NCBI RefSeq assembly: GCF_006345805.1 | Contig: NC_043008.1 | Location: 69,936,001-70,000,000 of the forward strand | Length of the DNA: 64,000 bases | Direction: 5' to 3' | Source: Octopus sinensis | Lineage: Eukaryota | Part shown: positions 1,985 through 44,048 of the stretch, one piece after another | Layout of the letters: the number at the start of each line of letters is the position of its first letter | Numbering within the stretch: the stretch's first letter is position 1 | The notes under the pieces: generated by a model | Seen by the model: the letters and a program-made list of their open reading frames with translations, nothing else | Told to the model about the DNA's origin: nothing | Database searches by the model: none | Position numbers and translations under genes: made by a program

Positions 1985-2213
1985 ATAAGAAATTGGAATA
2001 ACAAAACAATTTTTTATGTTATGAACATTTACCTTTATATAAATGTGTTTGCCCAAATAAATTGTGCTTCATGTTTGAAGCTCTGATGAAGTTATAGGGT
2101 AATACTCAAGCACTCAACTATGAGTGCATTGCACCTAATAGCAGAAACAGCTGTAAGCTAATGAAGTTCATAATATATTTGGTTATTTCCTTTGTCATCC
2201 CAATTCCTTATAT
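1985..2213 (+). mobile_element. Fold-back element carrying a hammerhead motif (Penelope-like pLTR derivative or retrozyme candidate)
   Basis: Imperfect inverted arms ~1985-2027 and ~2165-2213 flank the hammerhead core at 2083-2155. Ends in (TA)n. Confidence 0.6.
2079..2159 (+). ncRNA. Minimal type I hammerhead ribozyme motif
   Basis: AGCT-CTGATGA(2083-2089)-long stem II-GAAAC(2144)-AGCT-GTA(2153-2155)-AGCT. Stem I is AGCT/AGCT. Stem III is the palindrome ACAGCTGT. Confidence 0.7.
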
Positions 2214-3217
2214 ATAAATGTGTGTGTTTGTGTGTGTATATATACATGTATATATATATATATATATATATATATATATATGTGTGTGTGTGTGTGTGTG
2301 TGTATGTATGTATACATATATATATATATATATATATATATATATATATATATACACATACATACATACACGCACACAACTATCTATCTATTTACATACA
2401 TACATACAATCACTATAAATGGTTTATTTCAAAATATGTATTGTATAGAATTTGTTAAGATTTCAATTTTGGTGCAGAATATTTAAATATTTGATATGAA
2501 ATATGAAATATTCAATTGAAACTCACTGAAAATATTCATGCGATATATGAATTAATAATAAATTCCAGATATTACATAGGAGAAAAAGTAACACGTTCAA
2601 AAACTGAAATTGGGTTTTAATCGAAAACTGGGCTGTTCAGATGAATTTGTTTTCCTGAAACTCCTGGTTTGACTTCATATTTCTATAGACAACATCATTA
2701 ACTCTCTCTATATATATACATGTAGATGTGTGCATATATGTATATATATACATATATATATATATATATATATATATATGTATGTATGTATAGATCAAAT
2801 ATTTCCAGTAGAATATAAAGTGATTAGTTGTGCAAGGTAGCATTAATAAGAGTCAATATGGCGAAAGCCAAAAATATAATGGAATTATGATAGTTCTGTT
2901 ATAGAGTAAGGAGATATTTAATATCTTTCAAAGAACATTTCTTCGTTGGAGAATAGATAACGAATTCTGGTAGGAAATATTAGATTTATCTATTTATTTA
3001 ATTTTTCTTTTTCCTTTCTTTTCCATGCTGTAAACTTACATGACACTGTAGGTGGTTGCTTGACCTATTAGAAATAGCAACCAAGTCTTGGTGAGATTTG
3101 GAATCAGAAATTAATCCTATTTATTCTCAACCTGTCTGGGACCACCTTTGCTTCTGTGACACAATGTTTGTTTTAAAGCGCTGTAAATTCAAACCTTCGA
3201 ATGAGATTTCTTGTAGC

Positions 3218-3410
3218 ATGCTGGGTAAAATGCTTAGTGACATTTTGTCCATCTTCAATGTTCTGAGTTCAAATTCTGCCGAAGTTGATTTTGCCTTTCA
3301 TTCTTTCAGGGTCAATAAAATAAGAAGCAGTTGAACATTGGAATTGATGTAATTGACTTACCCCTCCTCTGAAATTGTTGGCCTTGTGCCAAAATTTGAA
3401 ATCAATTTAT
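3218..3410 (+). mobile_element. SINE family B, 5'-partial
   Basis: GTTCTGAGTTCAAATTC...GCCTTTCATTCTTTCAGGGTCAATAAAATAAG motif shared with many copies (16527, 44920-46050, 56455-57290). Confidence 0.8.
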
Positions 3411-3534
3411 GTTCCAAACAGCAGCTTAATAATGACAATTTTCAAAATTTATTAAAACAAAGTTAGGAAGTTCCCCAGCATGACTCTAATGACTGAAACA
3501 AGTAAAAGATAAATGATATATCTTGACTGAAATT

Positions 3535-4269
3535 GGCATTTAAACTGGCCATATCTGATCAAAAGAATCTACCTGTTTTATGTTCAAACTGGTTAGATCT
3601 GGCCTCTCACACTTACCCTACAATATCTTTCTAAAAATAAACAAATCACATCATCGAAATCTTAAAGCTACAAAGTCATGCACGACTAATTCATACCAAT
3701 GTCAATCTATATATATAAAACTGTAGTTGTGTGAGTGTCTGTCCCCTTCGATTTAGATTCCTAACTCCTCCCACATTTTGCAGTGCAGTTTAACCAAATT
3801 CGGGTATCTTATAGTCGTGATTAATATCGAGCCCGTCTGGCTATTAGCGCGCGTCTACGATGAGTCTACGATTTTAAAAATAATTTAACATCATTTTTTA
3901 TTCCATTTTAATGCATAATTTTTTGTGTGTCGATGGCGGCGGAGTTGGCGTCCACGCTGAAACACCTGCACCTGTGTTTGCTTCTCCCCCTTCTTCCCTC
4001 CCTCGTGAAGCTATGGGGAAGGGAGTGTAAGGAAATCAACGTCGTAATGTGTTGTCAAGGAGACCAGCGTTCTTTTAGAACAACGACTTCATGGCTTGAA
4101 GACACCAAAACAGAAATGGCTAAGAAAGCCCGAATTGGCATCTATAAGGGAAGTAACTCTCTAAAAATGCTTATATAGTTATTTCCCTTACAAACCCGAG
4201 CAACGCCGGGCGATACTGCTAGTTATTAATAATTACATTTAACAAAGTAATCTGAATGCAAAAGGGTTA
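3535..4269. mobile_element. piggyBac-like MITE remnant, interrupted by a Helitron
   Basis: Ends in ...GCAAAAGGGTTA (CCCT/AGGG terminus with partial TTAA), like the MITE at 59907. Split at 3705/4223. Confidence 0.45.
3706..4222 (+). mobile_element. Non-autonomous Helitron, 517 bp
   Basis: Starts TCTATATATATAAAA after an A. Ends with GC hairpin CCCGAGCAACGCCGGG then CTAG, followed by T. A|T insertion with no TSD. High CpG retention. Confidence 0.85.
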
Positions 4270-4319
4270 GAGGCTTATAATTAAATACCAAGCTTAAGTA
4301 CATACACTTTATATTTTTT

Positions 4320-4757
4320 TTACTTGTTTCGGTAACTAGACTGTGGCCTTGCTGGAGTACCTCCTTGAATTTTTAGTCAGATGAATTGTCCCCAGTACTT
4401 ATTTTTTGTTAAGGTTGGTACTTATTCTATCAGTCTCTCTTGTCAAATCACTAAACTACAGGGACATGAACAAACAAATACCAGTTGTCAAGCAGTGATG
4501 GGGCAATAATCACAGACAGAAAAACACATACATAGTGATACATATACATATATATATGTATATATTCAATATATATATATATGTATATAGACACAATGAG
4601 CTTCTTTCAGTTTCCATCTACCTAATCCACACACAAGGCTTTGGTCGACTTGAGGCTATAGTTGAAGACACTTGCTCAAGGAGCCATGCAGTGGGACTGA
4701 ATCCAGAACCATGTGGTTAGGAAGCAAGTGTCTTACCACACAGCCATGCCTGCTCCT
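4320..4757 (-). mobile_element. tRNA-derived SINE, family C (full length, internal microsatellite)
   Basis: Minus strand starts GGCATGGCTGTGTGGTAAG...GATTCAGTCCC (A/B boxes), then CTTGAGCAAGTGTCTT. Homologous to 31612(+) and 52405(-). Confidence 0.85.
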
Positions 4758-5224
4758 ACATTGTTCAGCAATCTATCATTTCTAGCAATTCATCATTTTT
4801 AATAAAAATGACATTCCTTATCACCATTGTGGTTGACAACATCATCATTTTAACCCTTAGGAGATAGCAGGGCTAATCTATCAGCCAAATGGTTGAATGA
4901 TGTTAGTTCATTCAGTTTCCTACAAGAATATATATAGTTTTATATATGTAAAGCAATTACTTTTTTTTTTTTTACATCTTTTTTGAAAAATATGTACATG
5001 CCCTCTGTAGGGGTTGTGAAAAGGTTTCTGTCTTCTTGTCACTGAAACTCTAAATGAGGCTTTGTCTCCATAGAGTTAAATGGCCACTCTTCCAGGTTTG
5101 CAAGGGTTAGATGGAATTCATTGAGGCAGATTTCTACAGCTACAAGTAGTAACTGTTGCCGACCTTGGCCTGATTCCAAGCAAAATAATATGATGGGAAT
5201 GTTTTTCTTATCTCTTACACGTTT

Positions 5225-42174: not shown

Positions 42175-42475
42175 CTTACTCCTTCTTGGGCCATGCCTGA
42201 CTCATAAGGGCTGGTTTCCCAGTTTCCTTGGTATATAGGTTTCCCACCTGGACAGGATGCCGGTCCGTCGCAGGTGAGCTGCAAGTTGCAGGAGGAAAGA
42301 GTGAGAGAAAGTTGTGACGAAAGAGTCAGCAGAAGTTTGCCATTATCTTCTGCTGGAGCCACGTGGAGCTTAAGTGCTTTGCTCATAAACACACACATTG
42401 CCCGGTCTGACATTCGAACCCGCAATCCCTCGACTGTGAGTCCGCTGCTCTAACCACTAGGCCATGTGCCTCCAT
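42175..42475 (-). mobile_element. tRNA-derived SINE (A-related), young, nested in a family D tail
   Basis: Minus-strand head GGAGGCACATGGCCTAGTGGTTAGAGC...GGTTCGAATGTC. Apparent TSD TGTTGCCCATGCT at 42156 and 42475. Confidence 0.85.
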
Positions 42476-42901
42476 GTTGCCCATGCTGGCATGGGTTATG
42501 TGTATATAAACAAGTTACATGACCTCTTCTGCTCACATATTATTACATGTGAATATTGTCATCAAGCTACCACTGATAAAGAATAACATGAAACTACCAT
42601 TTCAAAGAAAATCTTCCTTCAAATCATATCTCTTTGAATGATGCACAATTTAGCATGAAGTTTAGTAGCATAAAATGTAATATGTATATATTATATTTCT
42701 AAAAATATATTCACCCTACACATTTTGACTATTCATAGACACACGCAAACACATGCATTAAATGACGATAATGTGCATATACATGAGTGTGTATGTTTGC
42801 GTTTGGGAACTCATGTGAGTACATATGCATCATATGCCTACATACATACATAAACATGCACACATATGCATATCAACCAACCAACTAGAGATTTTTCATG
42901 A

Positions 42902-42987
42902 AACTCTGATGAAGTGAAGACGTAGAAAACTTACCTGGCCCAGACTACTTAATCCAACTATAATCTTCACTGAAACATGTGTAAGAT
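42902..42987 (+). ncRNA. Minimal type I hammerhead ribozyme motif
   Basis: CT-CTGATGA(42906)-AGTGAAGA/TCTTCACT perfect 8-bp stem II-GAAAC(42972)-ATGT-GTA(42981)-AG. Followed after ~45 bp by (TA)n. Confidence 0.7.
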
Positions 42988-43068
42988 GACCTCATGAAAT
43001 AATTTATGAATTGATTGTCCAGTTTGGTTTATATATATTTATATATATATATATATATATATATATAT

Positions 43069-43780
43069 ACGAACAAAACGCCCCACCCCCACGTCCAATG
43101 GATGGTGCTGAGTTGTCAAACATTTAAACCAAATTTTCTCAAAACAAATTGTCCGACCATCCCATAGGCCTCCCGTTTGAGAAACACTTATTTAACCTAA
43201 ATTTGAGACACCAGCAAAAGAAGAAATAAAAATAGACTTCTTTTCTATTCCAAAGAAAAACGATTTTATTCACACAAATATGCAACTGAAGAGTTTAAAG
43301 TAGCAGTAATGATAAGGCTGTTGACTGGGAGAACACAAATATGGTTTAAACAGTAAGCTTGGCAGGAAAGAAACGTGCCTTTAAGCAGTACAAAAACAAA
43401 AAAAAAATGGAAGGTGCAGTTATGTACAGGTTGACGGAAGAAAGGCAGGACAAAAACGATGCATCCAAATGGGTTAGCTCGAGGTAAATTTAGATGGAAA
43501 AGCATGATGATATTTTTGTGCAAACTATATGTGCATTTTTCTCACGTATGCATAGTATCGATTGCAACAGCTGATGTACTTGTGTGTACAAATGCACATT
43601 CCCACGGCTTTATCAATTGCATTCTCACCTGGAATCGATTTTTGTAATATTTTTCAAGACTTCTACATGCTCTGATACTGTCGGTATCTACATGTAAAAT
43701 TTGAGTGCAATCGGATGGAGGATACCCGAGATCCTAGAAGACACACACACAAACAGACAGAATGGATTTTATATAATAGA
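43069..43780 (-). mobile_element. Non-autonomous Helitron-like element
   Basis: Minus strand begins A|TCTTATATATAAAA followed by GTCT/GT repeats, like the Helitron at 3706. The 3' end is GC-rich but the CTAG is degenerate, so the left boundary is approximate. Confidence 0.55.
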
Positions 43781-43899
43781 TATATAAATGGAGTTAAATG
43801 CAGGTGTTATTCAAATTCTTTTACTTCCGACACATGGCAGTATAGGCAGTAATGTGCAATGTTTTACCAAAAGGAAAGCTATAATTGCCATTAGATATT

Positions 43900-44048
43900 A
43901 CTAAGGGTGTTAGAAACACCTACATTGCTCAAAATAAGAGCTAAACCGGGCAATTACAAACCCTGTTTGTATGTATACAATTACGTGGTTTGACTGCAGC
44001 ATTAGAGCATTTATTTCCAGCGATGTAGGTGTTTCTAACACCCTTAGT
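43900..44048. repeat. Fold-back element with 38-bp arms
   Basis: ACTAAGGGTGTTAGAAACACCTACATTGCT (43900) vs AGCGATGTAGGTGTTTCTAACACCCTTAGT (ends 44048). Followed by (TA)n. Confidence 0.85.

Follow-up and report, generated by a model that had tools for sequence, protein, structure and literature searches.

Hammerhead-bearing fold-back repeats in an Octopus sinensis locus as probable short insertion products of Penelope-like elements

A 64,000-nt stretch of the Octopus sinensis genome (assembly GCF_006345805.1, contig NC_043008.1, forward-strand positions 69,936,001 to 70,000,000; here referred to as the window) is rich in TA tracts and contains short fold-back elements and minimal hammerhead ribozyme (HHR) motifs. 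Do these make up a single system of non-autonomous ribozyme retroelements, as an original prediction from the bare sequence proposed, or do they derive from larger elements? We found that the motifs and fold-backs are real and multicopy, yet they are no new self-contained system: families A and probably B derive from coding Penelope-like elements (PLEs), and only families D and E look like non-coding tandem elements. We hold it to be very probable that the elements arose as short, truncated insertions from several PLE families, likely produced by endonuclease cleavage of TA-rich DNA and reverse transcriptase (RT) copying of RNA from the pseudo-long terminal repeat (pLTR), and that family A corresponds to the pLTR of a coding Hydra-clade element.

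All five predicted HHR cores are present in the window, at 2083 (+), 19547 (+), 19484 (-), 37981 (+), and 42906 (+). With our first motif descriptor, which found 0 to 5 window matches and missed two of these cores, enrichment over chance was weak: the observed count was reached by 6 to 11 of 200 local dinucleotide shuffles at three settings, and a strict setting gave 0 matches. The second descriptor was the first one adjusted afterwards to permit an unpaired base beside stem II. It found 4 window matches (stem II of at least 3 bp) against a shuffle mean of 0.05, and none of 200 shuffles reached 4. As an independent test, we applied it to 40 random 10-kb stretches and obtained 8, 6, and 4 matches at three stringencies; shuffles of these stretches gave 0.25, 0.025, and 0 matches (0 of 40 reached the observed count), and reversed sequence gave 0. 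Extrapolation from this 400-kb sample yields about 41,000 to 54,000 motifs in the 2.72-Gb genome (Poisson range, 15,000 to 107,000). The predicted high density thus holds genome-wide but does not single out the window, which is only mildly motif-rich (4 motifs per 64 kb versus ~1.3 expected from the random-sample rate).

The diversity that had been proposed was borne out as well. Across the loci that we fetched, 165 HHR matches formed 35 sequence clusters with differing stems (reversed control, 1 match); these 1.83 Mb are a biased sample, and the count is hence to be read as at least 35 families. In 40 of 63 motifs, loop 3 is perfectly palindromic, although the search did not impose this, and a TA run lies within 400 nt downstream of 87 of 119 motifs versus a 22% background. 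Across families, the core, stems I and II, and palindromic loop 3 are those of minimal type I HHRs, and the motifs belong to the expected class, PLE-type hammerheads in TA-targeting retroelements. No hammerhead family appeared among the best 150 of 327 rows of an Rfam search of the window. Genome-wide, the Rfam model Hammerhead_1 gave 7 matches with the best 74 of 265,813 candidates scored; these 7 loci (L001 to L007) also carry PLE-type motifs, mostly of one family with a short stem II.

Inverted arms were recovered in the window at 17415/17576, 17929/18243, 18817/18961, and 37831/38108, and all eight elements searched proved multicopy, with 27 to 89 matches each (best 24 to 40 candidates scored per query, from 903 to 2792 first-look candidates for seven queries and 24 for the element at 42906). 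Neither tblastn nor hidden Markov model (HMM) searches found PLE coding sequence in the window, as anticipated. The listed fold-backs were not confirmed as ribozyme carriers, and most have no intact HHR: the copies at 17273, 18777, and 43900 have none, the one at 17932 has a damaged variant core, and the HHR at 42906 sits outside any fold-back. Stems I and II both reach at least 3 bp in just one of the five window cores (2083), and most dispersed HHR copies appear to be dead. Among the sites listed as decayed motifs, 30457 matches family C, 18402 is part of family D, and 32105 matches another multicopy repeat; 1435 has the letters of the family C 3' half-core yet no BLAST match to that family, and 16063 and 39586 could be linked to no HHR family.

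The origin of these repeats is clearest for family A. Its window copy comprises an inverted arm with a ~75-nt tail (37753 to 37952, -), which is the 3' part of a Hydra-clade pLTR (L008; reference positions +85 to +282, inverted), and a forward copy (37950 to 38188, +) of the intronless pLTR with a short 3' end in a TA tract. The forward copy has an exact exon-exon junction between 37967 and 37968 (+). It also carries a minimal type I HHR with palindromic loop 3 at 37981 to 38043 (+), backed by the family alignment, whose core begins 13 nt past the junction and whose cleavage is predicted to fall after 38043. Over 222 to 226 nt, this copy is 96 to 98% identical to the pLTR exon of four loci (L273, L274, L298, and L299) in which an A-type pLTR is paired with an open reading frame (ORF). 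Upstream of the pLTR lies an ORF of 689 amino acids (aa) in L298 and one of 538 aa in L299. L274 is a unit of ~5 kb with pLTR sequence on either side of the ORF: a truncated pLTR with tail, a leader of ~60 nt, ORF pieces of 108, 432, and 285 aa (broken by one stop and one frameshift), a 3' region, and a complete intron-bearing pLTR with HHR and tail.

The marks of the Hydra clade are an RWK motif, a change of DKG to DKT, a CxCx5C linker, and endonuclease CxxC and CxH motifs (PMC8557442). The L274 protein has RxKWK, DKT, the CxCx5C linker, a C-terminal YIGST endonuclease region, CxxC, and CxH, and six homologues of 797 to 880 aa share its architecture. In the L295 protein, the first four marks are present and the last reads CxN; we also observed a long asparagine-rich stretch between its RT and endonuclease, like the N-rich inserts of rotifer Penelope elements (PMC3846280). 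An RT query gave 151 matches (best 150 of 12,152 candidates scored) with open frames of up to 859 aa, the longest belonging to a sister copy of the family A element. In sister subfamilies (L297, L301, and L303), pLTR sequence again flanks the ORF on both sides, and the HHR core is preceded at 13 nt by an AG, as in family A; L301 and L303 have an HHR on either side of the ORF. Family A thus combines an HHR in the pLTR and insertion into (TA)n with a single RT ORF, bearing a C-terminal GIY-YIG-type endonuclease, between pLTRs. Judged by its sequence, it represents the pLTR, or else a short derivative, of a Hydra-clade PLE that encodes RT and endonuclease. The expected joining of arms to PLE ORFs was found for family A; family B has a decayed match in 2 loci, and for families C, D, E, F, G, and H none was linked in the flanks searched.

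Long copies of family A contain, within the pLTR, a ~890-nt GT-AG segment whose end lies 13 nt ahead of the HHR core. This presumptive intron measures 874 to 904 nt in 11 of 14 long loci and 1138 and 1285 nt in two others, and it is absent from one. We compared splice state with the 5' end in 30 copies, taken as the first 30 of the 72 places where the 5' motif matches exactly. Seventeen copies begin at a fixed 5' site, which resembles what we take to be an initiator element; 16 of them have no intron (14 with exact removal and 2 with a junction shorter by 4 nt), and 1 is unspliced. The other 13 reach upstream of the site, several by more than 1 kb, and 10 of these keep the intron while 3 are spliced (Fisher P = 2.7e-4 on 14/1/3/10, the two odd junctions omitted). 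On a tree of 63 family A copies (51 spliced and 12 unspliced), the spliced/unspliced label changes 12 times (10.9 times in shuffles), and one split that separates spliced from unspliced copies was rejected (approximately unbiased test, p-AU of 1.8e-5). On the interleaving and the rejected split, we dismissed one intronless master for family A. A short element without a longer parent, which score-ranked matches had suggested, was overturned by the pattern-based sample.

Most family A fold-backs bear the spliced junction, so spliced sense RNA is likely to have templated these head-to-head insertions. Such a template conflicts with antisense self-priming (PMC3846280), unless intronless copies were recopied from antisense RNA. 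Arkhipova et al. (2013) suggested that an antisense template could account for head-to-head inversions as well as intron retention, without settling the matter (PMC3846280), and Craig et al. (2021) called the significance of PLE intron retention unknown (PMC8557442). We lean, though not far beyond an even chance, toward a fuller account. Capped, spliced sense RNA from the pLTR would have been copied repeatedly into intronless solo-pLTR insertions, fold-backs included, while read-through RNA gave intron-retaining copies; "intron retention" would then be set by the place of the intron in the transcript and not by an antisense template. Tens of thousands of HHRs in at least 35 families would, moreover, place the genome among the richest ribozyme reservoirs in animals. 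Intronless genomic PLE copies are not reported in the literature that we searched, which excludes most subscription papers, Repbase, Dfam, and supplements.

The pattern would say nothing about the strand of the template if the ~890-nt segment were a later insertion, or if intronless copies arose by DNA deletion or by antisense transcription of copies already intronless, an account that we consider unlikely. Intronless genomic copies are numerous and could be retranscribed either way, and three of them extend upstream. Among contigs from three sequencing runs, X4 and X5 have the intron-spanning form and X1 has the joined one; the RNA status of these runs is a guess, and the joined form also exists as DNA. 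Opposed to this account are the GT/AG ends and exact removal in 17 of the 19 intronless copies among the 30, the identical acceptor position in sister subfamilies, and subfamily variants common to spliced and unspliced forms across the tree. An intron at this place is also documented in other PLEs: Drosophila Penelope has a start site in the pLTR followed by an intron (PMC2377424), and in Drosophila virilis Penelope the intron ends beside HHR stem I (PMC4209133). When we sought spliced copies of the sister Hydra subfamilies, the splice donor site was not located. As a separate observation, a 56-nt piece inside the family A intron (L274:7255-7310) had very high depth in all four runs; elsewhere it recurs in TA tracts as a short repeat followed by a tandem tail, and it is possibly the end of another abundant retroelement.

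The remaining window families differ in how far they can be traced. Family B is a head-to-head fold-back (19400 to 19691) with one HHR per arm (19547, +, and 19484, -), both damaged, and a tail on the + arm. A decayed Hydra-like endonuclease C-terminus lies upstream on the same strand in 2 of 30 loci (L047 and L062), and family B is probably the 3' end of another Hydra PLE. Family C is a fold-back (1881 to 2211) with an inverted 3' end and tail at 1881 to 2005 and a forward copy whose HHR, at 2083 to 2155, is the sole one in the window to satisfy the full descriptor. Family G is a 3'-end fold-back (43841 to 44049) with no HHR in the window copy, though some relatives have an upstream HHR-like motif with a loop of ~10 nt. 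Family H is a solitary HHR of an old family (42906 to 42983, +; relatives 69 to 90% identical). C, G, and H carry or derive from HHR families with no linked ORF. Family F is a multicopy fold-back (18779 to 19066) whose relatives have the 5' half-core only; no complete HHR was found among them.

Families D and E are of another kind. The window copy of D (17932 to 18672) is a 314-nt palindrome plus an extension, derived from a tandem HHR unit of ~501 bp; the unit has the core CCGAAGA, and in the window this core, at 18352, is one base short. The window copy of E (17273 to 17670) is a fold-back of the part of a 601-bp tandem unit downstream of the HHR, and no HHR is present here. Elsewhere, family D occurs as 2 to 3 tandem units of 501 bp, and in family E the HHR units, of 601 bp, are joined head-to-tail, 9 of them in L380. 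In 4 flanking stretches for D and 8 for E, we found no PLE ORF. With non-coding tandem units that hold one type I HHR each, the sequence hallmark of non-LTR retrozymes, D and E are likely to be non-coding tandem derivatives (retrozymes) that moved in trans. We also asked whether a Neptune-type PLE could be the parent whose pLTR gave family D, and rejected this: such an ORF adjoins D in L130, but the orientation is sense in only 1 of 21 ORF loci, and the Neptune-type family has its own 3' HHR. We read the contact as adjacency, though a template switch is conceivable. That family is itself young (L130:3739-7439, -, and L221 to L240), with Pfam RVT_1 and GIY-YIG domains, in several copies a 466-aa frame that overlaps one of 781 aa, and U3-A8 type HHRs in relatives. 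Its 3' region has repeated boxes and another box, which we take to be CCAAT/CRE-like and TATA-like, respectively.

Could all of the fold-backs nevertheless belong to one dedicated class of non-autonomous ribozyme elements, in fixed short units with retrozyme- or short interspersed nuclear element (SINE)-like masters? The head-to-tail HHR units of D and E without an adjoining PLE ORF, and the one start site shared by many family A copies, would suit this idea. We nonetheless regard it as improbable: family A belongs to a coding element as its pLTR, its intronless copies are not a single clade, and inversion points differ from copy to copy, which leaves the dedicated unit valid for D and E alone.

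Fold-backs are arranged head-to-head with a variable breakpoint and a tail at one end. The inner inversion breakpoints of family A span -37 to +222, the second arm of family D measures 34 to 239 nt across 11 relatives and 314 nt in the window, and many copies have no inversion at all. These variable arms and breakpoints, together with the inversion-free copies, exclude fixed terminal inverted repeats; since breakpoints vary, each fold-back would be formed anew at insertion. The 3' ends of the 30 family A copies fall at two sites ~75 nt apart, +205 to +214 in 18 and +282 in 11, with 1 elsewhere. One tailed and one short end were present in 27 of 29 fold-back loci, and none was two-tailed. Families A, D, B, and C share the PLE inversion layout, with head-to-head arms, a variable breakpoint, and an optional one-sided tail; in family F the junctions vary and the one-sided tail is mostly absent. 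The flanks are TA tracts, which mask any target site duplication. That the arms are terminal inverted repeats of miniature inverted-repeat transposable elements (MITEs) and the hammerhead motifs passengers, a version of the refuting alternative named by the original prediction, is highly implausible in spite of their short, non-coding build, inverted arms, and TA flanks, given second arms of no fixed length, the many copies lacking inversion, the asymmetric ends with a tail on one side, precise intron loss implying an RNA step, and an RT-endonuclease parent, which contradict it for A, B, and D.

The reading that we prefer, short PLE insertions, suggests the following sequence of events. Transcription would start at the fixed pLTR site of family A, and the first intron, lying in the pLTR, would be spliced before reverse transcription. 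The element endonuclease would cut TA-rich DNA, and RT would copy the pLTR portion of the RNA, beginning internally at either of two sites, as observed in vitro for an anole PLE. Two cDNAs primed from both cut strands may then meet head-to-head and give a fold-back, while copies templated by read-through RNA would mostly retain the intron. Processing of multimeric RNA by the HHR likely requires a dimer or the aid of a protein, and D and E would be moved in trans.

Several observations weigh against this reading. The hammerhead fold is not the minimum-energy fold of the family A monomer. Pfam searches with the L274 pieces returned no RT or GIY-YIG family, and the Hydra assignment draws on motifs and the six homologues, not on a tree with reference PLEs. 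The link for family B consists of decayed sequence in two loci (HMM independent E values of 3e-4 and 3e-3). For C, D, E, F, G, and H, no parent ORF was linked in a search of 1.5-kb flanks and 15 longer stretches; nearby RT remnants in L042, L100, L337, and L394 are not common to copies, and similar remnants occur in 6 of 40 random stretches. Within family A, the copies are related, so the Fisher P value overstates their independence; the three spliced copies that extend upstream and the unspliced copy that begins at the fixed site run counter to the pattern; and the tree is poorly resolved (strong support for 5 of 52 branches, 213 columns). Copying of a cap is expected to leave an extra G, but only 3 of 17 fixed-site copies have one. 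The 29 fold-back loci were top matches to a one-tail query, which under-samples tail-less fold-backs.

The window has further features. Broken reading frames at 33897 to 35271 (+) resemble what we take to be a non-LTR retrotransposon reverse transcriptase, and a 180-aa frame at 38805 to 39344 (-) resembles the N-terminus of what would be a Tc1-type transposase. A tRNA-like SINE head, recognized by eye, follows a TA tract at 1537 to 1870 (+).

The general picture is one of known PLE biology; what is new is a useful handle, the family A intron, on a mechanistic question that is still open. The copies of this family record dozens of dated natural events and allow the splice state, the 5' end, the side of the tail, and the inversion of each to be scored jointly, and if our account is true, the genome is a natural record of PLE template choice. 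For annotation, short hairpin repeats that resemble MITEs or unknowns are to be recognized as PLE products, and the Rfam type I model recovers few of their motifs. An octopus genome has been annotated with PLEs as a major, partly active class, in a study that is not known to mention ribozymes (PMC13282606); no octopus hammerhead study was found in the literature searched.

Family A resembles the Hydra clade (PMC8557442) in its C-terminal endonuclease with RxKWK, DKT, CxCx5C, CxxC, and CxH, and equally in its HHR within the pLTR, (TA)n insertions, inverted 5'-truncated copy, and one-sided tail. It differs in scale: Hydra elements are described there as few families, generally of <3 kb, in contrast to the 12,152 first-look RT candidates and ~5-kb L274 unit here. 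The tail is 30 to 40 nt in that description versus ~75 nt here, where a ~890-nt pLTR intron is also present. The minimal HHRs of metazoan PLEs (PMC4209133) share with ours a short stem I, an unpaired base before stem II, a palindromic loop 3, and a U3-A8 variant, as well as many families per genome, opposite-strand pairs, and mostly truncated PLEs. Stem II is often much longer here, and the ~2,000 to 9,000 HHRs per genome reported there compare with about 41,000 to 54,000 here, under a different descriptor and in a larger genome.

Like non-LTR retrozymes (PMC7229834; bioRxiv 10.64898/2026.07.22.740005), D and E consist of non-coding units in tandem, each of which has one type I HHR; families A and B do not appear to be retrozymes. 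At 501 and 601 bp, the D and E units exceed the 150 to 450 bp of the former study and lie within the 51 to 972 bp of the latter. Their HHRs differ in being of the minimal PLE type. The anole Poseidon PLE in vitro cuts both strands in AT-rich DNA, and its HHR is dispensable for insertion (PMC11167929). Its RT start sites lie 111 to 118 nt inside the ORF, whereas both family A ends, as deduced from genomic copies, would lie upstream of the ORF start. Two internal RT start sites define the tail of the anole element, as they would in family A, and the pair of 3' ends in family A fits the two internal start sites of Frangieh et al. (2024; PMC11167929).

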